Below are positions 28,446 through 60,331 of a stretch of DNA of 64,000 nt, piece by piece. A program made the translations under genes and the position numbers. Below the pieces are notes generated by a model, which saw nothing but the letters and a program-made list of their open reading frames with translations, did no database searches and was not told where the DNA came from. Every line of letters starts with the position of its first letter. Position 1 is the first letter of the stretch. Source of the stretch: an uncultured Thermoleophilia bacterium (GTDB lineage: Bacteria > Actinomycetota > Thermoleophilia > UBA2241); contig CAVYDV010000008.1 of the NCBI GenBank assembly GCA_963767505.1, positions 358,937-422,936 on the forward strand, given 5' to 3'.

Positions 28446-28617
28446 GGCGCAGCTCGACCTTGTGCGTGACCTCGTGGCATTCTCGAGCCAACATGTCTAC
28501 ATAGGGAGCCCGTTCGTCGACTCATTCGTGGATGAGCCGAGAGGGCACCCACCTGCAAGAGCAGGTTCGAGAATAAAGCGAGCACGGCAAGGTGGAGCAA
28601 TTCACTAGGGAGGATGC

Positions 28618-32362: not shown

Positions 32363-32411
32363 TAGGGTTCGGCCTGTCCCGGAGGCTCACCCAGTCGGCA
32401 AGGAGCGATTG

Positions 32412-32906
32412 ATGGAAGCCATACTCGCGCCAATCGCGCTGACCTCTTCCGAGGTACTGCGCTACGCCGCCGCCTTCTTCTTCGTGTTGGTCGCGATCAC
32501 GATGGCCTATGCGCTCATCAAGGCCGCCAAGGCACTGGATCGCGTCGACACGGTGCTGGCCGACGTCGATCAAGAGGTCGTACCGCTGATGAAGAAGGCC
32601 GGCGTGTCTCTCGACGGCGTCAACGCCAACCTCGGCAACGTCGACGACATCACCAAGGACGTCGCCGACATCACCGACAAGATCGACTCCATGGCCAACA
32701 TCGTCGAAGGCGCCGTCTCCAAGCCCGCGCGCAAGGCGGCATCGTTCAGCGCCGGCGTGCAAACGGCCATGTCCTCGTTCATGCGACGCGACCGGGACGA
32801 CCTCGCTGAAGACGCCCCGTCCGAGGACGCCTCCGCCGCATCCGAGACGGCGGCAGCGGCCAGCGCGGCAGGCGACGATCCGGGGACTCCCCCAAGCGAG
32901 ACCTGA
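32412..32906 (+). CDS. DUF948-like membrane-anchored protein
   Basis: AAGGAG then ATG 32412. One TM helix followed by a long helical region rich in D/V/A (..DRVDTVLADVDQEVVPLMKKAGVSLDGVNANLGNVDDITKDV..). Confidence 0.6.
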   Translation: MEAILAPIALTSSEVLRYAAAFFFVLVAITMAYALIKAAKALDRVDTVLADVDQEVVPLMKKAGVSLDGVNANLGNVDDITKDVADITDKIDSMANIVEGAVSKPARKAASFSAGVQTAMSSFMRRDRDDLAEDAPSEDASAASETAAAASAAGDDPGTPPSET

Positions 32907-33205: not shown

Positions 33206-33604
33206 TTGACCGAGAGGATCAACCTCGAGGTGCCGGCTTCGCTCAGCGCTCTCTCGGCGGTCCGCAGAGTGCTCGGCGGTCTCGGTGCGCGGCTCGGCTA
33301 CTCGCTGGACGACATCGAAGACCTCTACCTCGGCACAGAGGAGCTGCTGCGCGCCGCGCTGAGCTACGAATCACTCGAGTGCTTTCGCCTCGAGATGCTG
33401 GTGGCGGCAGACCACCTGCAGCTCACGATCGGCACGTTCTCTTCGGAGCGCCTGCTGGCCGAAGTGGCTGCCGAGGTGCAGGCCTGCGACAGCATCGACC
33501 TCTGCCGCTTGCTGCACCGCACCATGGATGAGGTCAATGTGGTCGATCCAAGCGACGCCTTCAGCGTGGTGCTCCTCCGGCGCCATCGGGATGTGGACTC
33601 GTGA
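33206..33604 (+). CDS. RsbW-like anti-sigma factor lacking the kinase ATP-binding motifs
   Basis: The N-terminal half aligns by eye with B. subtilis RsbW (INLEVPASLSALSAVRRVLGGLGARLGYSLDDIEDLYLGTEELL vs [44 protein letters not shown]). The N-box Asn and the DxGxG/GxG boxes are absent. The stop overlaps the sigma gene GTG. Confidence 0.6.
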   Translation: MTERINLEVPASLSALSAVRRVLGGLGARLGYSLDDIEDLYLGTEELLRAALSYESLECFRLEMLVAADHLQLTIGTFSSERLLAEVAAEVQACDSIDLCRLLHRTMDEVNVVDPSDAFSVVLLRRHRDVDS

Positions 33605-34434
33605 GCGTGGATGCGCACGACGACGTCGAAGGCCGCGGTCGCGACGAGTCGGAGAAGCTGGATCAGTACCTGCTGCGCCGCTACCATTTGCACGGCGACC
33701 AGAAGGCGCGCGAGCAGCTGATCACCATGTACATGCCGCTGGTGCGCTCGCTGGCGCGGCGCTACGCCTCCCGCGGTGAGCACTTCGACGATCTCGTCCA
33801 GGTCGGGGCGATCGGCCTGATCAAGGCCATCGACCGCTTCGACCTTGCTCGGGGTGTCGAGTTGACGACCTACGCCACGCCCAACATCGTCGGCGAGATC
33901 AAGCGCTACTTCCGCGACAAGGGCTGGTCGGTGCGGGTGCCTCGCGGCCTGCAGGAGCTGAACATCCGCGTCAACAAGGTGATCGACGAGCTGACTCCCA
34001 AGCTGCAGCGTTCGCCGACCATCGCCGAGATCGCGGAGTCGGCCAACGCCACGCCGGAGGAAGTCCTCGAAGCGCTTGAGTCAAGCCAGGCCTACAACTC
34101 CATCTCCCTTCAGGCGTCCCCGAACAGCGATTCCGGCGACGACGAGGCCAGCCTCGTGGACTATCTCGGGGGCGAGGAGGACGCCTACGACACGATGGAG
34201 GATCGCACGATGCTGGCCCCGGGCTTCGCCAAGCTCGAAAGCCGCGAGCGCTACATCCTCCACCTGCGCTTCTTCGAGGGCCTTACCCAGAGCCAGATCG
34301 CGTCGCGCGTCGGCATCTCGCAGATGCACGTTTCGCGCCTCATCCGGCGTTCGCTGGAGAAGCTCCGCGAGGAGATCGGTGAGCTCAATGCTCCGCCGGC
34401 CAAGCGCTCGCCGAGCACCGGCGACGACCTGTAG
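33601..34434 (+). CDS. Group-3 sigma-70 family factor (SigB/SigF type)
   Basis: Region 2 (FDDLVQVGAIGLIKAIDRFD, TYATPNIVGEIKRYFRDKGWSVRVPR), region 3, and region 4 HTH (LTQSQIASRVGISQMHVSRLIRRSL). Intact. Confidence 0.85.
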   Translation: MSVDAHDDVEGRGRDESEKLDQYLLRRYHLHGDQKAREQLITMYMPLVRSLARRYASRGEHFDDLVQVGAIGLIKAIDRFDLARGVELTTYATPNIVGEIKRYFRDKGWSVRVPRGLQELNIRVNKVIDELTPKLQRSPTIAEIAESANATPEEVLEALESSQAYNSISLQASPNSDSGDDEASLVDYLGGEEDAYDTMEDRTMLAPGFAKLESRERYILHLRFFEGLTQSQIASRVGISQMHVSRLIRRSLEKLREEIGELNAPPAKRSPSTGDDL

Positions 34435-34451: not shown

Positions 34452-37088
34452 GTGAGGGACCCATTGAAGGCTGCCGATATCCGCGACCTGTTCAGAGACT
34501 TCTTCGCCGCGCGCGGACACATCGAGGGTGAGCCTGCAAGCCTGGTTCCCGCCGGCGATACCAGCGTGCTGTTCACAACGGCGGGCATGCAGCAGTTCAA
34601 GCCCTACTACCTGGGTGTGGGGACTCCCCCGGCGAGGCGTATGATCACCTGCCAGCGCTGCTTCAGGACCTCGGACGTCGAGAACGTCGGAAAGACCGCC
34701 CGCCACCTCACGTTCTTCGAGATGCTCGGCAACTTCTCGTTCGGCGACTACTTCAAGGCCGAGGCGATCAAGTGGGCTCTGGAGTTCTCGGACGAACTCG
34801 GCATCGATCGCGATCGGGTCTGGATCTCGGTGTACGGCGGCGACGCGGAGGTACCGGCAGACGAGGAGGCCGTGGAACTCTGGCAGAGCTGCGGCGTCCC
34901 GGCCACGCGCATCGTACGGCTCGGCCGCGGCGACAACTTCTGGGGGCCGGCCGGGCCCACGGGCCCGTGCGGCCCGTGCTCCGAGCTCTACTACGACCTG
35001 GGCTCCGAGTTCGGCTGCGGTTGCGCCACATGTGCGCCCGGCTGCGACTGCGACCGCTTCATGGAGTACTGGAACCTCGTCTTCGTCCAGTACGAGATGG
35101 ACGCCACGGGGGCTCTCACGCCGCTGCCCCAGCCGAGCATCGACACGGGCATGGGGCTCGAGCGCCTGGCCACCATCACGCAAGGCGCAGGCGACGTCTA
35201 CGAGACCGATCTCTTCGCCTCGCTGATGGCTACGGCGTCGCGCCTGGCAGACGTGCGGACGGACGACTCGGCCGCTGCGACTCGTGCACTGCGGGTCATG
35301 ACCGAGCACGCCAGAGCGGCGGCCTTCCTCGTCATGGACGGTGTCCTGCCCGGCAACGAGGGCCGCGACTACGTACTGCGGCGCATCATTCGTCGGGCCG
35401 TGCAGCAGGGCGTCTCCATCGGCATCGACAAGCCATTCCTGGCCGCCTTGGCCGGGCAAGTCGTGGATGAGATGGGCGCCGCCTACCCGCAACTCGTCGC
35501 GGCGCGGTCGGAGATCGATCGGGCCCTCGTCGAGGAGGAAGCCCGTTTTCGCCGTACGCTCGATCAGGGCATGGGTATCATCGACGAGGCCTTGCGGCGC
35601 GCGCGCGACGCAGGCTCCGAGCTTCCGGCCGAAGTGGCTTTCGAGCTGCATGACACGTACGGCTTCCCCTTCGACCTCACGCGAGAGATCGCCGCCGAGT
35701 CAGAGATGAGCGTCGACGAAGAGCGCTTCGAGCACCTCATGGAGGAGCAGCGCCGGCGGGCTCGAGCGGCGCAGAAGGACGCGGGTCTGGCCGGTACGGA
35801 CGAACTCAACAGCTTCCAGCGGCGTACATGCCGGGCTGCCGTCTCGTTCGTCGGATACGAGCAGCTCGAGGTCTTCACAGTCATACGGGCTTGCGACGAG
35901 CTGTCCGACGGCCGTCTCGTCGTCAAGCTCGCCGAGTCGCCGTTCTACGCCGAGGGCGGCGGACAGGTCGCCGATGTCGGGTGGGTGCACACGGACTCGG
36001 GCAAGCTCGATGTGGACGAGGTCCTGCGTTTCGACACCGACCAGGTGCTCGTGGCGCGTCAGGTAGAAGGCGAGGTCGTCGCCGGGGAACGTGCCAAGGC
36101 CATGGTCAACGCCGTCCGCCGTCACCAGACCGCATGCAACCACACCGCGACGCATCTCCTGCACAACGCTCTGCGCATCGTGCTTGGCGACAACGTACGC
36201 CAGGCCGGATCCATGGTGCGTCCGGAACGCCTGCGTTTCGACTTCAACGTTCGCAGGGCGCCGACACGTGAGGAGCTCCGGCAGGTCGAAGAGCTCGTCA
36301 ATCGGCGCATCGTCGAGAGCCACGCTGTGCGGCCGTTCGTGACGACCAAGGAGTATGCAGCCGAGATCGGCGCGTTGGCCTTCTTCGAAGACAAGTACGG
36401 TGAGTTCGTCCGCGTGCTGGAGATCGACGACTTCAGCCGCGAGCTTTGCGGCGGCACGCACGTGACGTCGACCTCCCAGATCGGCATGTTCAGGATCACC
36501 AGCAGTCAGTCGGTCGGCGCCAACACGCGCCGCATCGAGGCCATCACGTCGGCCAGGGCCATCGACCACTACCGTAGGCTCGAGCAGGAGTGGGACGAGG
36601 TCGCCGAAGGTCTCGGCGTCAAGCCCGATCGCCTGGGCGCGACGGTCGACAAGCTCAAGAACCGACTCGCCGAGACGCAGGCCAAGCTCAAGGCGGCGGA
36701 GAGTGGGGGAGGGCAGACCCGGCTGGAGGACCTGCTCACCGCGATGACGCCCGTCGGTGGCGTGTCACTGGTCGCGGGCGCGCCGGATGTGGCCGACGGC
36801 GCTGAGCTGCTCGAGCTCGCGGATCAAGTGCATGCGCGCCACCCGGAGGCCATCGTCCTTCTGGGGGCGGCCCTGGGTGGCAAGGCGGCTCTGGTCGTGT
36901 CCGCCGGCGATGCGGCAGTGGGTCGCGGTGTCCACGCCGGTGAGATCCTGAAGGCCATGCTGCCTGCCGTCGACGGCAGGGGCGGAGGGAAGCCGACCCT
37001 GGCACGCGGGGGCGGGGCCAACGAGGCCGGCATCGCCGCGGCCCTTGAGGCGGGCGTCGCCCGAGCCCGAGGCCTGCTGGAGGAGTAG
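34452..37088 (+). CDS. alaS: Alanine--tRNA ligase
   Basis: Intact 878 aa. FTTAGMQQFKPY, editing-domain HxxxH (NHTATHLLHNAL) and CGGTH, C-terminal DHHA1. Confidence 0.95.
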   Translation: MRDPLKAADIRDLFRDFFAARGHIEGEPASLVPAGDTSVLFTTAGMQQFKPYYLGVGTPPARRMITCQRCFRTSDVENVGKTARHLTFFEMLGNFSFGDYFKAEAIKWALEFSDELGIDRDRVWISVYGGDAEVPADEEAVELWQSCGVPATRIVRLGRGDNFWGPAGPTGPCGPCSELYYDLGSEFGCGCATCAPGCDCDRFMEYWNLVFVQYEMDATGALTPLPQPSIDTGMGLERLATITQGAGDVYETDLFASLMATASRLADVRTDDSAAATRALRVMTEHARAAAFLVMDGVLPGNEGRDYVLRRIIRRAVQQGVSIGIDKPFLAALAGQVVDEMGAAYPQLVAARSEIDRALVEEEARFRRTLDQGMGIIDEALRRARDAGSELPAEVAFELHDTYGFPFDLTREIAAESEMSVDEERFEHLMEEQRRRARAAQKDAGLAGTDELNSFQRRTCRAAVSFVGYEQLEVFTVIRACDELSDGRLVVKLAESPFYAEGGGQVADVGWVHTDSGKLDVDEVLRFDTDQVLVARQVEGEVVAGERAKAMVNAVRRHQTACNHTATHLLHNALRIVLGDNVRQAGSMVRPERLRFDFNVRRAPTREELRQVEELVNRRIVESHAVRPFVTTKEYAAEIGALAFFEDKYGEFVRVLEIDDFSRELCGGTHVTSTSQIGMFRITSSQSVGANTRRIEAITSARAIDHYRRLEQEWDEVAEGLGVKPDRLGATVDKLKNRLAETQAKLKAAESGGGQTRLEDLLTAMTPVGGVSLVAGAPDVADGAELLELADQVHARHPEAIVLLGAALGGKAALVVSAGDAAVGRGVHAGEILKAMLPAVDGRGGGKPTLARGGGANEAGIAAALEAGVARARGLLEE

Positions 37089-37090
37089 CC

Positions 37091-37486
37091 ATGCGCATCG
37101 TCGCTCTCGATCACGGAGCGGTGCGTACTGGGGTCGCGATCTCGGATGAGACGGCCACTCTGGCGCGGCCTCTCACCACGCTCGCAAAGGTTGACACGGC
37201 GCCGGGCTTCTCGGCGCTGCTCGCGTTGCTCGAGGCCGAAGCGCCCGGACTCATCGTGGTAGGGTTGCCCGTGTCCCTTGACGGCCGCGAACACGAGCAG
37301 GCGCGACACGCGCGGTCCTTCGCGGAGCGCCTCAGGCTGGCGGTGGCCCTTCCCGTGGAGCTGTACGACGAGCGCTTCACGAGCAGGATCGCTGACCAGC
37401 GCGGTGGCCGCGCGTCGCGCGACGCGCGGGCCGCTGCAACGCTGCTCGAGGACTACCTGAGGATGATCGGTGAGCCGACCTTCTAG
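37091..37486 (+). CDS. ruvX: Putative pre-16S rRNA nuclease / Holliday-junction-resolvase-like YqgF
   Basis: MRIVALDHGAVRTGVAISD start, 131 aa. Conserved alaS-ruvX-mltG order. Confidence 0.85.
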   Translation: MRIVALDHGAVRTGVAISDETATLARPLTTLAKVDTAPGFSALLALLEAEAPGLIVVGLPVSLDGREHEQARHARSFAERLRLAVALPVELYDERFTSRIADQRGGRASRDARAAATLLEDYLRMIGEPTF

Positions 37487-38657
37487 TGGTCCCCACGTTC
37501 CGGGCGGACCGCCTCAGTCCGATGGCGAGTGGTTTCGCTATGACCCCGACGACCGCTGGGCGAGCGACGGACCCGCGCACTCTGACGACGATCTGAGCTT
37601 CGTGCGTCGTTCACGCCGCGGGCCGCCTGAGCGTCGGCGAAGGCGGGGTCGTCTGATCGGCCTTGTCCTGGTGGCCATCCTCGCGCTGTTGGCCGGAATG
37701 GGTGCGGGGTATGCACGGAGCTACTTCTCCAGCGGCGCGGTGGGCGAGGAGGTCACCGTGGTCATCGCCGCGGGCGACAGCTTGAGTACGATCGCCGACA
37801 AGCTCGAAGCGGCGGGTGTCGTCGAGCACGCGGGGGCCTTCGTAGTCCGCGCGAAGACCGATGGCTACTCCTCGCAATTCAAGGCCGGGACGTATCGACT
37901 GCGCGAGAACGAACCGTATGCGGATCTCGTCACCATTCTCGTGGAGGGGCAGAAGCCCCTCACGGTCAAGGTCACCATCTTCGAGGGGAGCACGCTCAGG
38001 CAGTCGGCCGCTCTTGTGGCCGAGAGGGTCGAAGGCGTCGAGGCCGAGGACTACATTCGAATCGCGCGAGACGATCCTCCGAAGATCCGGCTGGAGGGCT
38101 ACAAGACCGGGACGACGCTGGAGGGCCTGCTGTTCCCAGCCACATACGAGCCCGAGCCCGAAGTGAAGGCAAGACCCTTCATCGAAGGACAGCTCGCCGC
38201 CTTCGAGGAAGGCTTCGCAGAGGTCGACATGAGGCGTGCCGACAAGGCGAACCTCACACCCTACGAAGTTGTCATCATCGCATCGATGATCGAACGCGAG
38301 GCGCAGGCGGAGGATGAGCGCCCGCTGGTCGGGGCGGTGATCTGGAACCGCCTGCAAGACGACATGCTGCTGCAGATCGACGCGACGATCCAGTACGCCC
38401 TGGGAGAGACCAAGCCCCTCCTCACCTTCGAGGATCTCAAGATCGACTCACCATACAACACGTACACGAACGCCGGCCTGCCGCCGACGCCGATTGCCAA
38501 CCCCGGACTCGCTTCACTGCAGGCCGCCGCCGACCCAGCCGCAGTAGACTACCGCTACTACGTGGCGCGCGCCGACGGCACGGGAAAGCACTACTTCTCG
38601 CGCACCTACGAGGAGTTCCTCGCGAATCAGGCCAAGGCCGTGCGCAACAGCCAGTAG
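37470..38657 (+). CDS. mltG: Endolytic murein transglycosylase MltG (YceG-like)
   Basis: N-terminal TM helix, ..LEGLLFPATYE.., IIASMIEREA, SPYNTYTNAGLPPTPIANPG. Intact. Confidence 0.9.
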   Translation: MSRPSSGPHVPGGPPQSDGEWFRYDPDDRWASDGPAHSDDDLSFVRRSRRGPPERRRRRGRLIGLVLVAILALLAGMGAGYARSYFSSGAVGEEVTVVIAAGDSLSTIADKLEAAGVVEHAGAFVVRAKTDGYSSQFKAGTYRLRENEPYADLVTILVEGQKPLTVKVTIFEGSTLRQSAALVAERVEGVEAEDYIRIARDDPPKIRLEGYKTGTTLEGLLFPATYEPEPEVKARPFIEGQLAAFEEGFAEVDMRRADKANLTPYEVVIIASMIEREAQAEDERPLVGAVIWNRLQDDMLLQIDATIQYALGETKPLLTFEDLKIDSPYNTYTNAGLPPTPIANPGLASLQAAADPAAVDYRYYVARADGTGKHYFSRTYEEFLANQAKAVRNSQ

Positions 38658-38676
38658 GCGGGGGCAGCGCCAGGTC

Positions 38677-38698
38677 GGGGCAGGAGACGCCCCCTTTT
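38677..38698 (+). terminator. Weak candidate intrinsic terminator after mltG (GGGGC-N7-GCCCC + CTTTT)
   Basis: 5-bp GC stem followed by the only T4 tract in this spacer. Confidence 0.3.
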
Positions 38699-38831
38699 CC
38701 GCCAATCAATAGGGCGACACGCTCGTCGGCGATTCCCTCGAAGCTGCCTCGCGCCGCCCGAGAACCGCCGTTGACGGGACTTCACACGGGGGCACGAGAC
38801 GATCCAGGGAACGACACAAGTCATAGGCATC

Positions 38832-39641
38832 ATGGGCGACCCCGTAGCGCACTCGCTGTCGCCGGCGGTCCACAACGCCGCCTTCGCAGCAGCGGGCCTC
38901 GACATGGTCTACGTGCCGCTGCCGGTGCGCGCCCAGGACGTCGGCGCCGCGGTCAACGGCCTTGTCGCCCTTGGCTTCCGCGGCGCCAACGTGACCGTCC
39001 CTCACAAGGGAGCCGTGATCCCGTGGCTCGACTGGCTCGACGACGACGCCCGCCTCGCGCAGGCGGTCAACACGATCGTCGTCGAAGATGGCGTGCTACG
39101 CGGCTACAACACCGATATCGACGGCGCACGCACGGCGCTGGTCGGCGTATGCGGAGACTCCTTGCGCGGCTCCCGCGCCCTTGTCCTCGGAGCCGGGGGC
39201 GCCGCGAGAGGTGTCGCGCTGGCGCTGGCGAGGCTGGGCGCCGTGCTCACGGTCGTGAATCGTACCGGCGCTGGAGCCGAGCGCCTCGCCGCGCTCGCCG
39301 AAGCCGGCGTGCCCGGCGCCGCCTGCCGCTGGCTTCCCCTCGACGAACTCACGCCGGCGGATGTCGCGCAGCAGAGCCTGCTTGTCAATGCGACCTCCCT
39401 CGGGATGACAGGAGCAGGTAAAGTCCCCGCGTCGTTGGTCGATACAGTGTCAGCAGGGCAAGTCGTATTCGATGTTGTGTACGGCCGCACGGAGACAGAT
39501 CTGCTGCGGCAGGCGCGCAGCCGGGGGGCCCAGACGGTGGACGGCAAAGCCATGTTTCTGGCCCAGGCGATTGGGGCCTTCCGACTCTGGACGGGTCAGG
39601 CGCCACCGGCAGACGTGATGCAGACTGCACTGAACTCATGA
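38832..39641 (+). CDS. aroE: Shikimate dehydrogenase; homology appears to extend upstream of the first ATG
   Basis: GDPVAHSLSPAVHNAAF and NVTVPHK. The in-frame upstream codons read ..TQVIGIM, the usual beta-1 strand, but lack a canonical start. TTG 38771 is in another frame. The stop overlaps the pilB ATG. Confidence 0.85.
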   Translation: MGDPVAHSLSPAVHNAAFAAAGLDMVYVPLPVRAQDVGAAVNGLVALGFRGANVTVPHKGAVIPWLDWLDDDARLAQAVNTIVVEDGVLRGYNTDIDGARTALVGVCGDSLRGSRALVLGAGGAARGVALALARLGAVLTVVNRTGAGAERLAALAEAGVPGAACRWLPLDELTPADVAQQSLLVNATSLGMTGAGKVPASLVDTVSAGQVVFDVVYGRTETDLLRQARSRGAQTVDGKAMFLAQAIGAFRLWTGQAPPADVMQTALNS

Positions 39642-41533
39642 GCAAATCGGGAAGTGGGGACTTGGAGTCCACGACGTTCGACACTGACGAGGGCATCGCC
39701 GTCGACGAGGCGATCGTCCTGCTCGAGCAGCCCGAAGTCGAGAGGCTCGACCTGCCGGCGAGTGATTCCGTGCCCGAAGCCAATGGGAACGGCTCCAACG
39801 GCGAGCGTGGAGTGACCACCGCCGATGCCTTGGACGGCTTCGTGCGCACGCAGCGCGCCTCCAAGCTCAGCCTCGGCGACATCCTCAAGGACATGGGTCT
39901 CGCGACAGAGAAGCAGATCACGACGGCGTTGGCGAAGCAGAAGGAGACGCGGCAACGCATCGGCCAGATCCTCATCGATGACGGCTCGATCAGTCAGCTC
40001 GATCTGACGAAGGCCCTGGCCAACAAGTTCGGCGTAGCCTTCCTCGACCTCTCGGACACGACCCTCGAACCCGCCGCCGCCGGAACGATCGACGAGAAGC
40101 TGGCGCGACGGTACGGCGCTGCGCCCATACGCTATGTAGACGAGAACACGCTGCTCGTCGCCATGGTCGACCCCCAGAATCTGCTGGCGCTCCAGGACCT
40201 CGAGATCATCACCGGCTACGGCATCCAGGCGGCGATCGCCAGCGAGGAGGACGTGTACGGCGCCATCTCCAAGATCTACCGCGACCGCCCCGAGGTCGAT
40301 CTGGACGAGGCCGACCTGGCAGACCTGGACGACGGCGCCGACGTCGCCGACATCCGCGACGCCACCGATGAGGCGCCGATCGTCAAGCTGGTGAACTCGA
40401 TCATCGCCCAGGCTGTCGACGACGGCGCCAGCGACATCCACTTCGAGCCGCAGATGAAGGAGCTCTCGATCCGCTTCCGCATCGACGGCGTGCTGCAAGA
40501 GATCATGTCGGTCCCGCGGCGCATGCTGAGCGGCGTCATCAGCCGCCTCAAGATCATGGCCGACCTCGACATCGCCGAGCGCCGCGTTCCGCAGGACGGT
40601 CGAATCGGCCTCATGGTCGGCGGCCGGCCCATCGACATGCGTGTCGCCACTCTGCCGACCGTCTACGGCGAGAAGATCGTCATGCGCCTCCTCGACAAGT
40701 CCAACGTCATGCTCGACCTCGAGGATCTGGGCTTCTCGGAGAAGGCGCTGAAGCGCTTCCGCGGGTCGTTCACGAAGCCCTACGGCGCCATCCTGGTGAC
40801 GGGGCCCACCGGCTCCGGCAAGTCGACGACGCTGTACGCGGCGCTCAACATCCTCAACTCCACCGAGAAGAACATCATCACCGTCGAGGATCCGGTCGAG
40901 TACCGCCTCGGCGGCATCAACCAGGTCCAGGTCAACACGCGCGCCGGGATGACCTTCGCCGCCGCGCTGCGCTCGATCCTGCGCTGCGACCCCGACATCG
41001 TGATGATCGGCGAGATCCGCGACCGCGAGACGGCGCAGATCGCCGTCGAATCGGCGCTCACCGGACACCTCGTGCTCAGCACGCTCCACACCAACGATGC
41101 CCCTGGGGCGCTCTCGCGGCTCACCGAGATGGGCATCGAGCCGTTCCTCTCGTCTTCGGCGGTCGATTGCGTGCTGGCCCAGCGCCTCGCGAGACGCCTC
41201 TGCACGGTCTGCAAGGAGCCCTACACTGCGACGCGCGAGATGCTGCGCAAGAACGACTTCCCCGCCGAAGTGTGGGAGCGCGACGATGTCGTCCTGCATC
41301 GCGCCAAGGGCTGCCCGCGGTGCAAGAACACGGGCTACAAGGGGCGTCTCGGCCTCTACGAGGTGATGATCGTGAGCGAGGCGATCCGCCGATTGACCGT
41401 GGAGCGCAAGAGCGCCGACGAGATCTCCCGGGTGGCCAAGGCGGAGGGCATGAAGAGCCTTCGCGAGGACGGCATCGACAAGGTACTGCAAGGGGCGACC
41501 TCCTTCGAGGAGATCGCCCGCGTCATCATCTGA
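39638..41533 (+). CDS. pilB: Type IV pilus assembly ATPase PilB (GspE family) with MshEN-like N-terminal domain
   Basis: Intact 631 aa. Walker A GPTGSGKST, Asp box, Walker B, His box, tetracysteine CTVCKEPY..CPRCKNTGYKGR. The N-terminal T2SSE_N region has two 24-aa motifs (aa 78-101 and 107-130). Confidence 0.9.
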   Translation: MSKSGSGDLESTTFDTDEGIAVDEAIVLLEQPEVERLDLPASDSVPEANGNGSNGERGVTTADALDGFVRTQRASKLSLGDILKDMGLATEKQITTALAKQKETRQRIGQILIDDGSISQLDLTKALANKFGVAFLDLSDTTLEPAAAGTIDEKLARRYGAAPIRYVDENTLLVAMVDPQNLLALQDLEIITGYGIQAAIASEEDVYGAISKIYRDRPEVDLDEADLADLDDGADVADIRDATDEAPIVKLVNSIIAQAVDDGASDIHFEPQMKELSIRFRIDGVLQEIMSVPRRMLSGVISRLKIMADLDIAERRVPQDGRIGLMVGGRPIDMRVATLPTVYGEKIVMRLLDKSNVMLDLEDLGFSEKALKRFRGSFTKPYGAILVTGPTGSGKSTTLYAALNILNSTEKNIITVEDPVEYRLGGINQVQVNTRAGMTFAAALRSILRCDPDIVMIGEIRDRETAQIAVESALTGHLVLSTLHTNDAPGALSRLTEMGIEPFLSSSAVDCVLAQRLARRLCTVCKEPYTATREMLRKNDFPAEVWERDDVVLHRAKGCPRCKNTGYKGRLGLYEVMIVSEAIRRLTVERKSADEISRVAKAEGMKSLREDGIDKVLQGATSFEEIARVII

Positions 41534-41555
41534 CAACCGCACGAAGGAAGTGGAG

Positions 41556-42630
41556 ATGGATCTGGTCGACGTCCTTCTCGAGGTCCTGGAACGCGATGCC
41601 AGCGACCTGCACCTCTCGGTGGGGTCGCCGCCCATCATCCGCATCAACGGCGCGCTCGAGCGGCTCGACTACCCGAGGCTCGAGGCCAACGACACCCGCG
41701 AGCTCATCTACAGCATCCTCTCGCAGGACCAGCGCCAGCGCCTCGAGAACGAGTGGGAGATCGACTTCTCGTACTCGGTCCCGGGCAGAGCGCGCTTCCG
41801 CGTCAACGCCTTCTTCCAGCGCAACAGCCTGGGAGCGGCCTTCCGCCTGATCCCCATCCAGATCAGGCCGCTCGAGGAGCTCGGTCTGCCCAAGGCGCTG
41901 CACGAGCTCACCAGGAAGCCGCGCGGCTTCGTCATCGTCACCGGGCCGACCGGCTCGGGCAAGTCGACGACGCTGGCGGCGATGATCGACGAGATCAACG
42001 AGACACGCGACGAGCACATCATGACGATCGAGGACCCCATCGAGTTCCTCCATCGCCACAAGAAGTGCATGGTGAACCAGCGCGAGGTGGGCGCCGACAC
42101 CAAGGGCTTCAACCGCGCCCTCAAGAGCGTTCTGCGCCAGGACCCGGACATCATCCTGGTCGGCGAGATGCGCGACACCGAGACGATGGCCACGGCGCTG
42201 ACCGCGGCCGAGACCGGGCACCTCGTCTTCGCGACCCTGCACACCCAGGACGCGCCGCAGACGATCGACCGCATCATCGACGTCTTCCCGCCGCACCAGC
42301 AGGAGCAGGTCCGCGTGCAGCTCTCGACCACCCTGATGGGCGTCTGCACGCAGCAGCTGCTGCCGACCCGCGACGGGCGCGGTCGCGTCGTCGCCTGCGA
42401 GGTCCTCATGCCGACGCCCGCGGTGCGCAACCTCATCCGCGAGGGCAAGACGCACCAGATCTACTCGGCCATGCAGACGGGGTCGGCCTTCGGCATGCAG
42501 ACGATGGACGCGGCGCTCGCCGACCTGGTGCGCCGCAACATCATCAGTCGCGAGCTGGCCATGCATCGCTCCAGCGACCCGAACGGGCTGGAGCGGCTGG
42601 TCGGGCAACCAGTGCCCGATGGGGGTCTAA
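41556..42630 (+). CDS. pilT: Type IV pilus retraction ATPase PilT; the 3' end needs a 1-nt correction in a G5 run
   Basis: SDLHLSVGSPPIIRINGAL, Walker A GPTGSGKST, GEMRD, AETGHLVFATLHT, ..VRNLIREGK. The frame reads on into pilC unless G5 (42621-42625) is G4. That would give ..PVPDGV-TAA (42628-42630), followed by GGGAGGA and the pilC ATG. Confidence 0.85.
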
Positions 42631-42639: not shown

Positions 42640-43854
42640 ATGAGCACCTTCGCCTACAAGGCGCTCGACGCCAGAGGCATGGCCGCGGGCGGACAGATCG
42701 ACGGTGCCAGCAAGGCCGCCGCGGCCGCTGCCCTGCGTCACCGGGGCCTCACCGTCCTCGACCTCAACGAGGTCAAGCGCGGCATCGGGCAGATCGAGAC
42801 TCGGCGGTCGCATCAAGCCCAAGGACCTGACCATCTTCTCGCGGCAGTTCGCGACCATGGTCAACTCGGGTCTCTCGATGCTGCGCTGTCTCTACGTGCT
42901 CGAGGAGCAGACGCAGAACAAGAAGCTCGCCAAGGTCGATCGGCGCCGTGCGCGCCGACGTCGAGGCCGGCATCATCCTGTCGGACGCGCTCGAGAAGCA
43001 CCCCAAGGTGTTCAGCCGGCTCTACGTCAGCATGGTCCGCGCCGGAGAGGTCGGCGGCATCCTCGATGAGGTGCTCAACCGCCTGGCGACCCAGCTGGAG
43101 AAGGAAGACAGCATCCGCCGCGCCGTCAAGTCGGCCATGGTGTACCCGGTGGTCATCGGCGTGTTCGCCATCCTCGTCCTGGTCGGCATGGTGATGTTCC
43201 TCATCCCCATCTTCGCCGGCATGTACAAGGAACTCGGGGACGCCGAGCTGCCGCTCCTCACGCGTATCATGGTGGGCCTCTCGGAGATCTTCCGCAGCTG
43301 GTGGGGTCTCGTCATCCTGGGTGTGATCATCCTCCTCATCTGGGTCGTCGCCCGGCTCAAGCGCACGCGAGAAGGGCGCCATGGTGTGGGACCGCTTCAA
43401 GCTGCGCATCCCCATGGGCATCGGCCAGATCGTCCGCAAGCTCGCCATCGCGCGCTTCTCGCGCACCCTGGGCACGCTCATCTCTTCCGGCGTGCCCATC
43501 CTCCAGGCTATCGAGATCACCGGCCAGGCAGCCGGCAACGCCGTCATCGAGCACGCCATGAAGGATGTGCAGCAGAGCGTCAAGGAGGGCGAGCCGATCA
43601 CCACCCCTCTCGAGAAGGTCTCGGTGTTCCCGCCCATGGTCACGCAGATGATCGCCGTGGGCGAGGAGACGGGCTCGCTCGACGCCATGCTGGGCAAGAT
43701 CGCCGACTTCTACGAGGACGAGGTCAACGCCAGCATCAAGTCGCTCACCTCGATCATCGAGCCCATCCTCATGCTCGGCGTCGGCATCATCGTCGGCATC
43801 GTCGTCATCTCGATGTACCTGCCGATCTTCAACATGATGAACATCGTCAAGTAG
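42640..43854 (+). CDS. pilC: Type IV pilus inner-membrane platform protein PilC (GspF family); 3 frame breaks
   Basis: MSTFAYKALDARG.., two GspF repeats (..LTIFSRQFATMVNSGLSMLRCL.., ..IARFSRTLGTLISSGVPILQAI.., PPMVTQMIAVGEETGSLD). Breaks at ~42795, ~42940 and ~43378. Confidence 0.85.
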
Positions 43855-43873: not shown

Positions 43874-44615
43874 GTGGAGAACGAGCAGCTGATCGCCGGA
43901 TATGCGACGAGCGGGTCGGCCGCGGCGCTCGACGAACTCGTCCGCCGCAACCAGAACCTGCTGCACCATATCCTCAAGCGTTTCGCGTACGCCAACGAGT
44001 CCTACGAGGACCTTCTGCAGGTCGCCAATCTGGGGCTCATCAAGGCGGCACAGCGCTACGACGCCACACGGGGCACGCGCTTCTCGACCTATGCGACGGC
44101 GATCATCGACGGCGAGTTGCGCCACCATCTGCGCGACTCGCTGCTCCTGCGACAACCTCGCTGGGTCAAGAAGGTCTACGCCGATATCCAGGTCAAGTCG
44201 AACGAGCTCATGCACAAGCTCGGCCGGGCTCCGGAGCTGGGCGAGATCGCGGCGGCTCTGAACATCGACGAAGACGGCATCCTCGAGGTCATGCGCCTCT
44301 ACGCGCGCATCGATCTGCACAGCCAGAACGAGCCGTACAGCGGCGACGACATGGGCATCGAGGCAGATCGCCAGTCCGTACGGGCCCTGCGGCAGGAGTC
44401 GTTCGCGCTGCCCATCGAGGACCGGATCGTCCTCTACGACGCTCTCGACACTCTCACTGGGTTCCAGCGTCGGCTCGTCTACCTCCTCTTCTTCAAGCAA
44501 CTCACGCAGTCCGAGGTCGCAGACCTGCTCGGCTTGAGTCGAAGGTCTCGCGCGAGCAGATCAAGCTGCTCGCACGACTTCGCCAAGCGTCTGCGCGGCT
44601 GGCCGCTTCACGATA
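43874..44615 (+). CDS. Group-3 sigma-70 family factor (FliA/SigD/WhiG-SigF-like) encoded inside the pilus cluster; one frame break (~44537)
   Basis: Region 2 (YEDLLQVANLGLIKAAQRYDATRGTRFSTYATAIIDGELRHHLRD), region 3 (LGRAPELGEIAAALNIDEDG), region 4 (RRLVYLLFFKQLTQSEVADLLGLS | KVSREQIKLLARLRQ..). Corrected stop TAG 44613-44615. GTG lies 19 nt after the pilC stop. Confidence 0.8.
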
Positions 44616-44855
44616 GTGCGGGCAAGAGACCCGCCTGCGCGGCTGCAGGCAGCGTCAGCGCCGCGCTGAGGCGTCCCCCGACTGGCGCACGGCCTGCCCC
44701 TCGATGGCCACTCCCGTCCACACGAGGGCATCCGTCGGCCGCTCACCGATCACGCAGTTCCTCGCCGCCGACCACGTGTCGACGAACCACTAGACGCTTG
44801 TTCCAGTCTGGGAGTGCCTGATCGGGGCAGAGTAGGTGTGCGTCAGACAGTCGCC

Positions 44856-44883
44856 TAAAGTGTCAACACGCGATTGCCGAAAG
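44856..44883 (+). promoter_or_regulatory. Candidate sigma-28-type promoter TAAAG-N15-GCCGAAAG upstream of the pilA leader
   Basis: TAAA at 44856-44859, a 16-nt spacer, then GCCGAAAG at 44876-44883 (consensus TAAA-N15-GCCGATAA). A second copy with identical spacing is at 51830-51857. Confidence 0.5.
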
Positions 44884-44919
44884 AGTGTCTAGGAAACGCA
44901 CAAGGAGGCACACTAGGGA

Positions 44920-45000
44920 CGAAAGCGATAAAGGCAAACCACCCGCGAGGGTGGGGCGCAAAGCTACAGGACTCACAGAGTCGGCTGAGCTGCCGCTACA
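44920..45000 (+). promoter_or_regulatory. Candidate c-di-GMP-I (GEMM-I) riboswitch aptamer in the pilA 5' leader
   Basis: GGCAAACC (44933-44940). Helix CCACCC/GGGTGG capped by GNRA loop GCGA (44939-44954). GGCGCAAAGC (44955-44964). A 12-bp second hairpin (44962-44991). Closing pairs GGC/GCC and AGC/GCT. Confidence 0.65.
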
Positions 45001-45155
45001 GGAGCGTTCAACAAAGCCTGTGAAGCCCGGCCGCGCCAAGCCAGAGCTTCGCAGGCTTCTTCTGTGGGGTCCGCGCAGGAAGCAGGGTCGGCAAGTCGTA
45101 CTACGCAGTCGTGTACATGTGGGGCAACGCACCAACAGAGAGGAGATGGCAGAAC

Positions 45156-45542
45156 ATGAAGCGTTTCACCAAAAAGCAGGGGGGCTTCACCCTCATCGAG
45201 CTCCTGATCGTGATCATCATCATCGGCATCCTCGCCGCGATCGCGATCCCGATGTTCCTCAACCAGCGCACCAAGGCCAAGGACGCAGGCGTCAAGGAAG
45301 GCACGCACAGCATCCAGATCGGCGTGCAGAGCTACGCCGTCGACAACAACGACGTCTATCCGCTGACCGCCACCATCGTCGCCGACGTCACGCCTCAGCT
45401 CGACCCGTGGCCGGACAACTCGTTCACCGGTGCCGCTATGGCCAACGACGGCGCCTTGGGCAACTTCACCTACGCGTCTGTCGCCGGAGCCGACTACACG
45501 CTCCTGGGTGTCTTGAGCGGCGGCAACTTCGTGGTGCGCTAG
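45156..45542 (+). CDS. pilA: Type IV major pilin (class III signal peptide)
   Basis: MKRFTKKQG|GFTLIELLIVIIIIGILAAIAIP shows a prepilin leader, cleavage-site Gly, Phe+1 and Glu+5. RBS AGAGAGGAG. 128 aa. Confidence 0.92.
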   Translation: MKRFTKKQGGFTLIELLIVIIIIGILAAIAIPMFLNQRTKAKDAGVKEGTHSIQIGVQSYAVDNNDVYPLTATIVADVTPQLDPWPDNSFTGAAMANDGALGNFTYASVAGADYTLLGVLSGGNFVVR

Positions 45543-45567
45543 GCAACTCCATTAAGAGAAGCCGTGT

Positions 45568-45603
45568 GCAGCGGGACGGGGCCATAAGGCCCCGTCCCGC
45601 TGC
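45568..45603 (+). terminator. Strong stem-loop after pilA (16-bp perfect stem, loop ATAA); candidate terminator
   Basis: GCAGCGGGACGGGGCC-ATAA-GGCCCCGTCCCGCTGC read directly, 26 nt after the pilA stop. No T-tract. Confidence 0.6.
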
Positions 45604-45748
45604 GTTGGGCCCCACGGTCGCCGCGCACAGGAGTGAGTGCGGTGGGCGGCGAACACCCAATTGCGTCGCCGTCCGATCGCACCGGGCCATTGCGAGCGAC
45701 GAGCGGTTCTCGGACTGGAACGACCCTGCGAAAGGCGGATGCGAGGGA

Positions 45749-46513
45749 ATGGTTCAGGAAGACCTGACTACCAGCATCGAGCCGTCGGCGAACGACGCTG
45801 GCGGTCCGGCCGTTCTGATTGCGGCCTCCACAAGACGGTCGCCGTCGGGTTCCGGCGCCGGAAGGTTGACATCCTGAAGGGCGTCGATCTCGTCGTCAAC
45901 CGGAATGAGGTGTTCGGCCTCCTGGGGCCCAACGGAGCGGGCAAGACGACGACCGTGAAGGTCGCCCTCGGCCTGATGAGAGCCGACGGCCGGCAACGCC
46001 CGCCTCGGCGTCGACGGGCTCGCGCGCGTCGGCTACCTCCCGGAGAACGCCTACTTCTACGACTATCTCTCGGGGCGCGAGTTCCTGGCGTTCTGCGCCC
46101 GTCTCTTCGCGCTCGACCCGGACGTGCGCCACGAGCGCGTCGACGAACTGCTGTGCGACGTCAGCCTCGAGGCGGCGGCCGACATCCACCTGCGCAAGTA
46201 CTCCAAGGGCATGCTGCAGCGCATCGGCATCGCGCAGGCGCTCATCAACGACCCGGAGCTGGTGCTCCTCGACGAGCCCATGACGGGACTCGACCCGGTC
46301 GGCCGGGTCGAGGTCAAGCGCATCATCCAGGACCTCCACGAGCGCGGCAAGACCGTACTCTTCAACTCCCACATCCTCGGCGATGTCCACGAGCTCTGCT
46401 CGCGCATCGCCATCATGCGCGCCGGCCGCGTCGTATGGACCGGAGCCGTCGCCGAGGCCCTGAACGAGGCGGCCTCCCTCGAGGACTTCTTCATGAAGGT
46501 GGTGACGGCATGA
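45749..46513 (+). CDS. ABC transporter ATP-binding protein (ABC-2 type, PilH-like position); 2 frame breaks
   Basis: ..[30 protein letters not shown] (Walker A), [15 protein letters not shown] (signature), [12 protein letters not shown] (Walker B). Breaks at ~45820 and ~45985. Confidence 0.8.
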
Positions 46514-47275
46514 ACCAGGTCGTGGCCATCGCCATGAACACATTCCGCGAGACGATCCGCGACAGAGTTCTCGCGGTCATCGTGGTGTTCGCCCTGCTGA
46601 TGATCGCCGGCGGCCTCTGGCTGGGCAGCATCAGCCTCGGCGAGCAGGGACGCATGATCATCGACTTCGGGTCTGGTCGCAGTCACGGGCTTCGGGCTCA
46701 TCGTGGCGGTGTTCGTGGCCGCCAGCCTGGTGCACAAGGAAGTCGAGAAGCGCACCGTGTTCGTGCTTTTCTCCAAGCCGGTGAGCCGTGCAGCGTTCAT
46801 CGCCGGCAAGTTCCTCGGCCTCTGCGGCACGATGGCCGTTGTGCTCACCGGCATGGGGCTGTTCCTCTTCGCGCTCGTCTGGCTGGTCGCCGGGCAGGCC
46901 TCGGGCATGGTGCTCCTCGCCGTGCTCATGATCTACGTGCAGCTTCTCGCCGTCGTCGCAGTCACGGTCTTCTTCTCGACCCTGGGCTCGGCTATCCTAG
47001 CGGCCGTGCTCGGCATCTGCGTGTTCGTGGCCGGGCAGCTCAGCCACAACGTCCTTTCTCTGACGCGCCTCGGCGACAATCCCGTCACCGAGGCCCTCTC
47101 CTGGGTGGTCTACGTCATCATCCCCAACTTCTCGGCGGTCGACGTGAAGGCCGGCGCCGTCGGGGAGCAGACGCTCGCCTGGGGGCAGATCGGGCTGTGG
47201 GCGGCGTACCTGCTCGCCTACATCGTCGTCGCCCTGGCGCTGGCTACCGTCGTCTTTCGCCGCAAGGAGTTCTGA
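46510..47275 (+). CDS. ABC-2 family transporter permease (PilI-like position); one frame break (~46670)
   Basis: ATGA overlap with the ATPase gene. [20 protein letters not shown].. and about six hydrophobic segments. Confidence 0.75.
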
Positions 47276-47277
47276 GC

Positions 47278-48021
47278 GTGTTTCGACGAGTGGTCGCCAT
47301 CATCGTGGTCGCGGCGTGTGCCGCAGGAGTGCTGGCCTACCAGGCGACGCGGCCTGCAAAGGCTCCGGCGGAGCCGCGGGTGTTCGTTCCTCCACCGCAG
47401 GTCTTTCTCGACTTCTCGCCGAGCTTCCGCACGTCGATCGCCGACGTCTACTATCTGAACATGGTTCAGTACTACGGCGAGCACGTCAATGGAGACGGGC
47501 GCCTCGACTCACTGCCTCAGATGGTCGACCTCGTCACGGAGCTGAGTCCACACTTCACGCGGCCGTACCGCTTCGGGGCCTTCGGCCTGGTCGACGCCGG
47601 GCAACCAGGAGCCAGCTACGAGATGCTCGAACGCGGCTTCGCCGCGAACCCCGACGACTGGCGATTCCCGTCATACCTCGGGTACTTCACCTACACATAT
47701 GCCAGCAACAAGGACAAGGACCGCATCGCCGCGGACTGGTACTCGAAGGCTGCCGCGATGCCGGGGAGCCCCGACTACCTCAAACGGCTCGCTGCGGTGC
47801 TTCACGGCAAGGGTGGAGAGACGCAGAAGGCCGTCCTGATGTGGGGGCAGGTCTACGCCGACGGCGACAAGTACTCCCGCCAGAAGGCCGTCGACGGTCT
47901 CGACCGCATCCTGCCGAAGGGCAAGCAGGCCCGGATGAAGGCCCTGGCTCCGCTCGTCGACACCATGCCCGAGGACGAGCTGAACCAACTCATCGCCGAG
48001 CTCTTCGCGGGGTACGAGTGA
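47278..48021 (+). CDS. Hypothetical membrane-anchored protein (247 aa), third gene of the ABC module
   Basis: GTG 47278 lies 2 nt after the permease stop. N-terminal TM helix ([17 protein letters not shown]), then a helical/aromatic-rich domain (..[12 protein letters not shown].., ..[27 protein letters not shown]..). Intact. Confidence 0.6.
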
Positions 48022-48824: not shown

Positions 48825-48966
48825 GCAGGCGGTACGTCATCCGGGTGACCACTCCGTCACCCTCGTGACCTTCCGCCTGCTCGGCTAGGCTGGCTGCGTT
48901 CTCCCCCCGGGTCGACACGAGGCATCCTCCCGGCCTCGTTCGACCCCCTCCCGCCGGAGGTGAGGA

Positions 48967-59677: not shown

Positions 59678-59763
59678 GCCGCTACACCCCGGCGCGACCT
59701 TGCTGTATCATGGCCTACTAGCGTTCTGGTCCGTTCACACCTTCGCATTCACATAGGATCCGC

Positions 59764-60331
59764 ATGGCAGAAGTAGTCTCCACGAACCAGTTCAAGAGCG
59801 GCATGGCGATCGAGATCGACGGTCAGCCGTTCACGATCGTCGAGTTCCAGCACGTCAAACCTGGCAAGGGTGGCGCGTTCGTGCGCACCAAAGTGCGCAA
59901 CATCGCCAACGGCGCGGTCCTCGACAAGACCTACCGCGCCGGCGAGAAGTTCGTGCGCATGCACACCCGGTCGCGCAAGATGGCCTACCTCTACTCGACC
60001 GAGGACGAAGTGGTCCTCATGGACAATGAGACGTACGAGCAGGTCTCCGTGAGCCGCCCCATGGCGAAGGACGCGCTCGAGTGGGTCGTGGAGAACATGG
60101 AGGTCGAGCTCCTGTTGCATCAACGACGCCCCGTTCGAGGTGGCGGCGCCGAACTTCGTCGAGCTGACGATCACTCAGTCGGATCCCGGCGTGCGCGGCG
60201 ACACAGCTCAGGGGGCCACGAAGCCGGCCGTCCTCGAGACAGGCGCCGTCGTGCAGGTGCCGCTGTTCGTCGAAGAGGGTCAGCGCGTCAAGGTCGACAC
60301 GCGCACCAGGGAGTATCTGAGCCGCGCCTGA
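59764..60331 (+). CDS. efp: Elongation factor P; one frame break (~60120)
   Basis: ..[37 protein letters not shown].. | ..[39 protein letters not shown]... Confidence 0.9.

Follow-up and report, generated by a model that had tools for sequence, protein, structure and literature searches.

What does a sigma factor gene do in the middle of a pilus cluster, and which promoters would its product read? The question is raised by a stretch of 64,000 nucleotides (nt) from an uncultured Thermoleophilia bacterium (assembly GCA_963767505.1, contig CAVYDV010000008.1, positions 358,937 to 422,936 of the forward strand), hereafter called the window, in which a gene coding for a group-3 sigma factor lies between pilC and pilA (Table 1; all coordinates are those of the window unless another locus is named). 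Judged from its sequence, this sigma belongs to a separate and so far uncharacterised clade, nearest to SigB/SigF and distinct from FliA/WhiG. We are confident, well beyond reasonable doubt, that a pilus-linked SigB/F-like sigma of this kind is conserved across two bacterial classes. Our best explanation of the locus, which we regard as evenly balanced between right and wrong, is that the sigma factor WhiG would drive pilB, pilT, pilC and the sigma gene, and that the pilus sigma would in turn drive transcription of a riboswitch-gated pilin.

The original prediction, made from the letters of the window alone, had placed a protein of 247 amino acids (aa) with regions 2, 3 and 4 in this slot, 19 nt past the pilC stop. 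Position, neighbours and product were all borne out; only the end of the gene moved by one base, from 44615 to 44616. The open reading frame (ORF) starts with a GTG at 43874, and the pilC stop codon occupies 43852-43854. As assembled, the ORF reads through to 44821 and would encode 315 aa, in which Pfam detects Sigma70_r2 (E 7e-18), r3 (E 3e-06) and r4 (E 1.6e-06), the r4 match breaking off at residue 223, at position 34 of the 50 profile positions. Shifting the frame after 44541 (the next frame is read from 44542) gives the C-terminus KVSREQIKLLARLRQASARLAASR, followed by a stop at 44614-44616. The repaired protein is 247 aa long, covers positions 1-49 of the 50 r4 positions and scores 65.1, 28.9 and 27.6 bits for r2, r3 and r4, respectively, all above the Pfam cutoffs. 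Since we counted as group 3 those proteins of about 250 aa that have significant r2, r3 and r4 matches and no long N-terminal region of the kind found in group 1 and 2 sigmas, the repaired protein falls into this group.

The original prediction had also called the sigma FliA/SigD/WhiG-SigF-like. Its group 3 and SigB/F-like side was retained, while profile scores, structural relatives, signatures and tree all spoke against the FliA/WhiG side. The best NCBIfam family is SigB/SigF/SigG (TIGR02980), at 160.2 bits; this lies below the curated cutoff of 234.35 bits, so that the pilus sigma does not qualify as a member of that subfamily. Scores were further from the respective cutoffs for FliA/WhiG (TIGR02479; 81.4 vs 189.6 bits) and for the WhiG equivalog (NF004935; 68 vs 343 bits). 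NF005644/PRK07408, which we take to be the model of cyanobacterial SigF, gave 127.4 bits against a cutoff of 261, and 139.8 bits with the Rubrobacter homologue. The best relatives in the PDB are the sigma chains of 1l0o (100 bits) and 8x6g (88 bits), presumably Geobacillus SigF and Staphylococcus SigB (the search tool labels them simply 'sigma factor'); E. coli FliA reaches 63 bits and the Streptomyces WhiG structure scores below both chains. Region 2.4 of the window sigma reads DGELRHHLRD and its region 4.2 SQKKVSR. Across the clade these regions take the forms DGELRH(H/Y)LRD and SQ(K/R)KVSR, which resemble GEIKRYLRD and SQMHVSR of SigB, and the sigma-28 signatures RIRGAMxDELR (2.4) and (T/S)ESRVSQ (4.2) are absent from the pilus sigma.

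In a neighbour-joining tree (200 bootstraps, with sequences verified against the PDB alignments), the pilus sigmas, that of Rubrobacter taiwanensis included, were monophyletic in 200/200 bootstraps, and the sigma-28 proteins stood apart from them in 200/200. The FliA/WhiG identity is ruled out by profile scores, signatures and tree together, and the phylogenetic placement agrees with the earlier view that the sigma is not flagellar. Furthermore, the WhiG of R. radiotolerans (7lq4) and the pilus sigma of R. taiwanensis match with only 39 bits and are therefore different proteins. We define the pilus-cluster sigma clade here by LLQVANLGLIKA and the two clade motifs given above, combined with a position in a pilus cluster, either directly after pilC or, in other lineages, after pilB or pilD; the window sigma shows all of these. 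Public annotations of such proteins read just 'sigma-70 family' or 'sigma-B factor'.

Two statements on the surroundings of the gene held up as well. Pfam showed nothing flagellar in the 20 largest other ORFs of the window, and no anti-sigma candidate was seen beside the sigma gene; within these 64 kb the sigma thus lacks the linkage to flagellar genes, FlgM or RsiG expected of a FliA/WhiG factor. No RsbW/SpoIIAB-type or STAS gene is adjacent to it either in the window or across the roughly 80 loci described below, where its neighbours are pilC and the riboswitch-pilA unit; a partner encoded elsewhere is possible. The window does contain a paralogue of the pilus sigma, a canonical SigB/F/G sigma (301 bits on TIGR02980, above the cutoff of 234), which overlaps an ORF with a weak match to RsbW (28 bits). 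This arrangement is kept in two related loci, L001 and L002, and in a Rubrobacter locus, L083.

Homologues of the pilus sigma number more than 1,400 at E <= 1e-10, and the best of them are almost all 246 aa long and 72-85% identical. Taking one genome per species, we obtained 80 loci, nearly all from metagenome-assembled genomes of Thermoleophilia and one from Rubrobacter taiwanensis. The order aroE-pilB-pilT-pilC-sigma was found wherever the flank exists, in essentially all 80 loci. The gap between pilC and the sigma gene measures 13-38 nt in 63/78 loci, which suggests co-transcription; the larger gaps of deep-branching loci, in which we recognised no conserved promoter, probably hold N-terminal extensions. 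Downstream of the sigma gene, a homologous aptamer and pilin gene are found in 66 of the 76 loci that have downstream sequence, the first aptamer copy lying about 65-380 nt past the sigma gene in most loci and the pilin gene about 170 nt further on. A survey of related genomes for sigma-pilin linkage, as earlier proposed, thus uncovers a conserved design of sigma, aptamer and pilin. The position varies outside this set-up: in Rubrobacter the sigma gene follows pilB and precedes the minor pilin genes, and a further Rubrobacter-type lineage has it between pilD and the pilin genes. R. taiwanensis and the window nevertheless share a longer synteny made of a DUF948 gene (32409-32906 in the window), small ORFs, the canonical sigma, alaS, ruvX, mltG, aroE and pilB. 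Compared with the intact locus L002 by tblastn, the sigma is 85% identical, PilB 82%, PilC about 86%, AroE 72% and MltG 68%; the sigma is conserved as strongly as the pilus machinery.

The aptamer ahead of pilA is of the cyclic di-GMP (c-di-GMP)-I type and belongs to the GGC variant of Rfam. Its homologues in related loci fall into class RF03167 (c-di-GMP-I-GGC) or RF01051 (c-di-GMP-I). Nine loci without an nhmmer match to the aptamer are true absences, Rfam finding no riboswitch in them either. A tandem pair of pilin genes, with a separate aptamer and a separate GTGTCT...GGGCA sequence for each gene, occurs in L015, L016, L018, L020, L022, L023, L026, L027, L043, L044, L064, L069 and L077; such tandem regions lie 700-2600 nt past the sigma gene and have a WhiG-type motif at the first unit only. 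Past the aptamer of the window, 45013-45072 holds a 13-bp hairpin (AAGCCUGUGAAGC...GCUUCGCAGGCUU) followed by CUUCUGU, which could act as a weak intrinsic terminator or as an expression platform. The region past the aptamer folds no better than shuffled sequence (z = -0.41).

The candidate target of the pilus sigma lies immediately upstream of the aptamer. This element, block (b), consists of GTGTCTAG, 12 bases and (T/G)(T/G)GGG(C/T)A, or, counted in another way, of GTCTAG-N13-GGGYA; its overall form is GTGTCTAG-N11-14-GGGYA or GGAGGCA, the second block being GGAGGCA after 11 bases in the subclade of the window. In the 32 regions picked up by a first-pass pattern, the distance from the end of block (b) to aptamer position 1 is 12-14 nt (mostly 13); the remaining aligned upstream regions show the block in the same place. 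It accompanies every aptamer, second copies included. When the strict pattern was searched over 2.19 Mb, 69 of the 85 matches lay upstream of pilin genes and 15 in a conserved coding stretch of pilB. Two near-invariant blocks, a spacer of variable sequence and fixed length, and a predicted start just before the aptamer make block (b) look like a promoter. The consensus of SigB-type promoters is GTTTAA-N12-15-GGGTAT, which GTCTAG-N13-GGGTA resembles.

The matches within pilB were set aside as coding coincidences. They occur in 13 loci at about +1444 from the start codon (e.g., L006 4124), read TGTCTCGCCTCACCGAGATGGGCA and encode the conserved peptide LSRLTEMG; coincidence with this peptide is the most likely explanation, although they could still represent an internal promoter. 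Block (b) is also retained where the riboswitch is missing: it is present in L031, which has lost the aptamer, and, as GTGTCTA-N14-GGGCC, before the riboswitch-less pilin gene of Rubrobacter (L080). In L031 (7800-8084 of that locus), the pilin gene is still preceded by both promoter-like motifs, and neither Rfam nor nhmmer detects an aptamer there, which makes this locus a natural riboswitch-less variant. In the window, no sigma-70-type promoter was found in 44500-45700, and neither a classical terminator nor a sigma-70-type promoter between the sigma gene and pilA on the + strand. No SigB-type autoregulatory promoter (GTTT...GGGTA) was found upstream of the canonical sigma operon, be it in the window or in Rubrobacter L083.

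A second, different motif brackets the same genes. Aligning the 110 nt before each aptamer brought out block (a), T(A/C)AAG-N15/16-(G/A)CCGA(A/T), which 47 of the 82 regions upstream of aptamers contain, in each case ahead of the first aptamer of a locus; its T(A/C)AA variation tracks the consensus of WhiG2 promoters (PMC12871210). This consensus is T(A/C)AA-N16-GCCGATAA (PMC12871210). We counted as WhiG2-type a motif upstream of a gene in which a -35 element T(A/C)AA is separated by 15-16 nt from a -10 element GCCGA whose central CGA is invariant. The motif ahead of the pilA aptamer fits this description throughout; nothing else in the 64 kb of the window matches TAAAG-N13-17-GCCGAW, against a chance expectation of 0.04 matches. 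A further motif in the 3' part of aroE fits with one mismatch outside the central CGA. Its homologue, TAAAGT-N12-14-G[CT]CGATA, occurs in 53 of the 69 loci holding that part of aroE. In the window it is spelt in rare codons (GGT AAA ... GAT): AAA accounts for 3 of the 73 lysine codons of five intact genes, and GGT for 12% of glycine codons, which argues for selection on the DNA.

To which sigma do these motifs belong? The original prediction had credited the cluster-encoded sigma with 'matching promoter motifs', presumably the TAAA...GCCGA pair, and this part is not supported: the motifs are of the sigma-28/WhiG type, and a sigma that lacks sigma-28 signatures and carries SigB-like ones instead is unlikely to be their reader. 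By precedent, the motifs belong to WhiG. Papers on Rubrobacter, from the sister class Rubrobacteria, describe a pilus cluster with internal WhiG-type promoters and mapped start sites, listed as WhiG targets under the control of RsiG and c-di-GMP (PMC8325347; PMC12871210).

The alternative, that the cluster sigma itself recognises both TAAA-N15/16-GCCGA motifs as an autoregulated, self-contained analogue of WhiG/FliA, strikes us as decidedly unlikely. It draws on the fact that these motifs are the most striking conserved elements of the region and bracket the sigma operon and the pilin gene, on the apparent lack of a WhiG gene in the 64-kb window, and on the way in which the Rubrobacter promoters were assigned to WhiG, namely by consensus and start-site mapping and not by direct WhiG assays (PMC8325347). 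Yet regions 2.4 and 4.2 carry SigB/F-type rather than sigma-28-type residues, the FliA/WhiG profile gives half the score of SigB/F/G (81 vs 160 bits), sigma-28 proteins separate in every bootstrap, and the Rubrobacter WhiG of known structure is a protein other than the pilus sigma. Moreover, cultured Thermoleophilia and Rubrobacter are described as having a separate, bona fide WhiG together with a single-motif, c-di-GMP-binding RsiG (PMC8325347).

With the TAAA...GCCGA motifs assigned to WhiG and block (b) provisionally to the pilus sigma, the preferred reading would run as follows. WhiG, assumed to be free at low c-di-GMP as in the published RsiG switch of related classes, would start transcription inside aroE, so that pilB, pilT, pilC and the pilus sigma gene would be co-transcribed. 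The pilus sigma would direct RNA polymerase to GTGTCTAG-N11-14-GGGYA/GGAGGCA, 13 nt upstream of each riboswitch-pilin unit, and WhiG would also fire from its second promoter just upstream of the first unit. The aptamer would then set the amount of full-length pilin mRNA made or translated. Pilin output would depend on WhiG, the cluster sigma and the riboswitch, forming a feed-forward cascade into which c-di-GMP would enter at more than one level. That the cluster sigma reads block (b) is a step that we place at, or slightly under, the halfway mark between doubt and belief, judging from motif and protein sequences. The complete circuit in early-branching Actinobacteria (Thermoleophilia and Rubrobacteria), in which a c-di-GMP-controlled WhiG would act on pilBTC and the pilus sigma, the latter on private pilin promoters, and a riboswitch on each pilin, is more tentative still; we see it as possible but on balance somewhat improbable.

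Several observations weigh against this reading. The -10-like part of block (b) in the window's own subclade is GGAGGCA and not GGGYA. Block (b) lies across the start site predicted for the WhiG-type promoter upstream of it and could be a leader or operator element, and the canonical SigB/F/G paralogue could read the same motif. The pilus sigma lies below the SigB/F/G cutoff, so its specificity is not simply copied from SigB. Finally, the 64-kb window contains neither WhiG nor RsiG, the RsiG motif E(X)3S(X)2R(X)3Q(X)3D occurring in none of its frames.

Some of these points feed an alternative in which the pilus sigma has its targets elsewhere and block (b) is the site of the canonical paralogue, the site of another regulator, or a leader RNA element of a WhiG-driven transcript. 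We consider it unlikely, though worth serious attention. The canonical sigma and its RsbW-like partner are encoded 9.5 kb upstream in conserved synteny, block (b) starts 2 nt past the -10 element of the WhiG-type motif in the window, and no covariation of sigma residues with motif variants could be extracted. However, block (b) precedes second pilin copies and the Rubrobacter pilin gene where no WhiG-type motif is found, and near-invariant blocks separated by a spacer of varying sequence and fixed length suggest a promoter rather than an RNA helix. Block (b) also co-occurs with the pilus sigma across two classes, and the site ahead of pilA is the only one in the window bar chance-level matches.

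The sigma gene is broken in the assembly. The original prediction had noted a 1-nt indel at about 44537. There is a frame break at that place, of another size: relative to intact orthologues, 4 nt (AGAA) are lost, a net shift of -1. Intact orthologues read GGCTTGAGTCAGAAGAAGGTC (GLSQKKV) where the window has its site at 44531-44547, and homologues have GL(S/T)QKKVSRE in place of GLSR|KVSRE, the bar marking the break. A contig with 93% identity, L001, lacks 5 nt (GAGTC) at the same spot (L001 10655-10670), and L074, essentially of the same species as L001, is intact there. Two different multi-base deletions at one spot, together with an intact conspecific, indicate consensus errors rather than inheritance. 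The window and L001 both lose their bases at a GAGTC/AGAAGAAG spot, which may be a site of systematic basecalling or consensus error; speculatively, GAGTC could be a methylation motif.

The break is far from isolated. Searching with the proteins of L002 (tblastn) revealed at least 13 frame breaks in 42.6-54.2 kb: three each in pilC and in the gene for a 383-aa protein, two in pilM, and one each in the sigma gene, the ABC ATPase, the ABC permease, pilD and pilO. The pilC gene is split into pieces at 42640-42801, 42788-42937, 42939-43376 and 43369-43851, in frames 1, 2, 3 and 1. In addition, the pilT stop is lost through a 1-nt insertion near 42618, the ORF continuing to 42830. Compared with L001, the indels of the window are mostly single-base insertions at non-homopolymer sites. 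Broken or fused ORFs are also found elsewhere in the window (8303-10273, 25307-25960 and 59722-62190): EF-P domains are fused to a carboxylase, hisS and uvrA are partial, and a truncated piece of pgk continues into tpi. Genes are fragmented throughout many sister contigs as well. Isolate names with MFD and the contig_N naming suggest that the sister assemblies are long-read metagenome assemblies.

Could the pilus cluster as a whole be truly decaying, with the frame break as a real pseudogenising mutation? The concentration of breaks from pilT to pilO, next to 8 kb without a single one just upstream (34464-42614), would fit decay, as would the break of the close relative L001 at the same spot. 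Against this, the lesions of the two contigs differ (4 vs 5 nt), L074 is intact, and broken or fused ORFs extend to other parts of the window and to many sister assemblies. We further polarised substitutions with L002 as outgroup. In the broken region, nonsynonymous to synonymous substitutions number 70/91 on the window branch and 64/94 on the L001 branch, compared with 63/97 and 82/153 in the intact upstream genes; the window branch thus fares no worse than its sister branch or the upstream genes, and the substitution counts carry no sign of relaxed selection. Given the intact L074, the lack of relaxed selection and an indel-ridden assembly, an artefact of the assembly is the most likely source of the frame break. 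The sigma gene is very probably intact in the organism, and genuine decay is highly improbable. It is likewise unlikely that the AAGAAG run is a site of phase variation or of a programmed frameshift, as L074 is intact, the lesions differ and selection is not relaxed.

How much of this design has been described before? The original prediction had held the combination to be undescribed. In part it is not: WhiG/c-di-GMP control of pili and a riboswitch ahead of C. difficile pilA1 have both been reported. The rest stands, as no paper was found on a cluster-encoded SigB/F-like sigma or on the combination. In the searchable literature we found no description of a SigB/F-like sigma inside a pilus cluster, of a private promoter for it, or of its pairing with a class-I c-di-GMP aptamer on each pilin; for Thermoleophilia, the literature search returned nothing on a riboswitch-pilin link or a pilus-cluster sigma beyond PMC8325347.

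One of the closest described systems is the WhiG-RsiG switch of Rubrobacter, which shares with our locus the deep lineages, the pilus cluster, promoters of the TAAA-N15/16-GCCGATAA type inside that cluster and c-di-GMP as the governing signal. There, however, the sigma is WhiG, which belongs to the sigma-28 family, is encoded elsewhere and is held by the anti-sigma RsiG, whereas the pilus sigma has SigB/F-type recognition regions. Neither a pilus-cluster sigma nor a riboswitch occurs in the searchable text of PMC8325347 and PMC12871210. With the SigB/SigF/SigG family, the pilus sigma shares its best profile and structural relatives, the signatures in regions 2.4 and 4.2 and a promoter similar to the SigB-type consensus, but that family works with partner-switching anti-sigma factors (RsbW, SpoIIAB), whereas the pilus sigma has none adjacent and forms its own clade.

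The precedent originally invoked for a group-3 sigma driving pilin transcription stands: SigF is needed for transcription of pilA1, encoding the major pilin, in Synechocystis sp. PCC 6803 (PMC2532724). Like the pilus sigma, Synechocystis SigF is a group-3 sigma distinct from FliA and RpoD-type sigmas. The pilA1 promoter is rich in purines, has GGTAA as its G-rich -12 block and contains TAGG in an upstream block, to be compared with GGGTA/GGGCA and GTGTCTAGG here; TAGG and the G-rich block are about 14 nt apart in Synechocystis and 11 nt apart here. To our knowledge, Synechocystis sigF is not encoded in a pilus cluster. That system also has no riboswitch, unlike ours, and the profile score (127 vs 261 bits) makes the relation one of analogy and not of membership.

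Clostridioides difficile offers the counterpart on the RNA side, with a c-di-GMP-II riboswitch upstream of pilA1 (PMC6200980). Both cases place a c-di-GMP-sensing riboswitch in the leader of a major pilin gene of a monoderm bacterium; the riboswitch is of class II there and a class I GGC variant here, and no dedicated sigma is known there. PilS/PilR of Pseudomonas and Myxococcus likewise are encoded beside pilA in the cluster and control pilin transcription, but they form a two-component system in which an enhancer-binding protein works with sigma-54, and the interval from pilC to pilA in the window holds no genes of this kind.

Table 1. Features of the window that bear on the pilus-cluster sigma gene.
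Feature	Position	Strand	Evidence or remark
Weakly RsbW-like ORF (33206-33604) and overlapping canonical SigB/F/G sigma (33601-34434)	33206..34434	+	TIGR02980, synteny
Sigma-28/WhiG-type promoter-like motif, TAAA-N15-GTCGATAC	39419..39445	+	In 3' part of aroE, ~190 nt before pilB start
pilB (extension ATPase), intact	39638..41533	+	Pfam T2SSE 1e-145, MshEN; tblastn 82% identity to L002 PilB, single frame
pilT (retraction ATPase)	41550..42620	+	Pfam T2SSE; tblastn residues 1-353 of 357, 92% identity
pilC (platform protein), four frame pieces	42640..43854	+	Pfam T2SSF; tblastn; frame plot of third-codon-position GC (GC3) agrees
Pilus-cluster group-3 sigma gene, SigB/F-like clade	43874..44616	+	Frame break 44540/44541
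Second sigma-28/WhiG-type promoter-like motif, TAAA-N16-GCCGAAAG	44856..44883	+	Ahead of pilA aptamer
SigB/F-like promoter-like motif, GTGTCTAG-N11-GGAGGCA (proposed target of cluster sigma)	44885..44910	+	Ends 13 nt before aptamer
c-di-GMP-I-type riboswitch aptamer (Rfam GGC variant), pilA leader	44924..44998	+	RF03167, 66.9 bits vs gathering score 59, E 1.3e-13
pilA (major pilin; MKRFTKKQGGFTLIEL...)	45156..45542	+	Pfam N_methyl 1.7e-09; tblastn to L002 pilins

Other features of the window were recorded along the way. Between pilA and the prepilin peptidase gene pilD lie genes for an ABC ATPase, an ABC-2 permease and a 247-aa protein without Pfam match (45826-48018); these three sit inside the pilus cluster in nearly all Thermoleophilia loci. 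Upstream of the operon of minor pilins (GspH-like), a direct repeat ACGTCAYCC-N11-12-CGTCAYCCTC is followed about 20 nt later by TAGSCT (48834-48891), at the same place in most related loci. Its resemblance to a housekeeping-type -10 element with a repeat operator suggests, from the sequence, that the minor pilins may be controlled separately from pilA. A 6S RNA is found at 28449-28602 (Rfam RF00013, 79.9 bits).

It is already known that actinobacterial pilus clusters contain WhiG-type promoters, that c-di-GMP exerts control by way of RsiG, that c-di-GMP riboswitches precede pilA1 in C. difficile and that the group-3 sigma SigF drives pilA1 in cyanobacteria, and our findings are not a new principle but a well-supported addition to the current model. 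They also serve as a warning that an apparent pseudogene in this assembly may reflect its indel errors. The current account of c-di-GMP control over actinobacterial pili is that of a single switch, RsiG-WhiG. The data point to an extra, dedicated sigma within the pilus cluster across two classes, and to every pilin gene having a private promoter as well as a riboswitch. Should the three-layer circuit be true, c-di-GMP would gate pilin production both at initiation, through RsiG-WhiG and the sigma cascade, and afterwards, through the aptamer. The locus would then offer a clear case from nature in which a sigma cascade and a riboswitch act on one output, would extend the theme of group-3 sigmas driving pilin genes from cyanobacteria to actinobacteria and would refine the way in which the pilus regulon published for Rubrobacter is read. 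Since this sigma and this promoter are also present in Rubrobacter strains that can be cultured, for example R. radiotolerans or R. taiwanensis, the proposal is directly testable.

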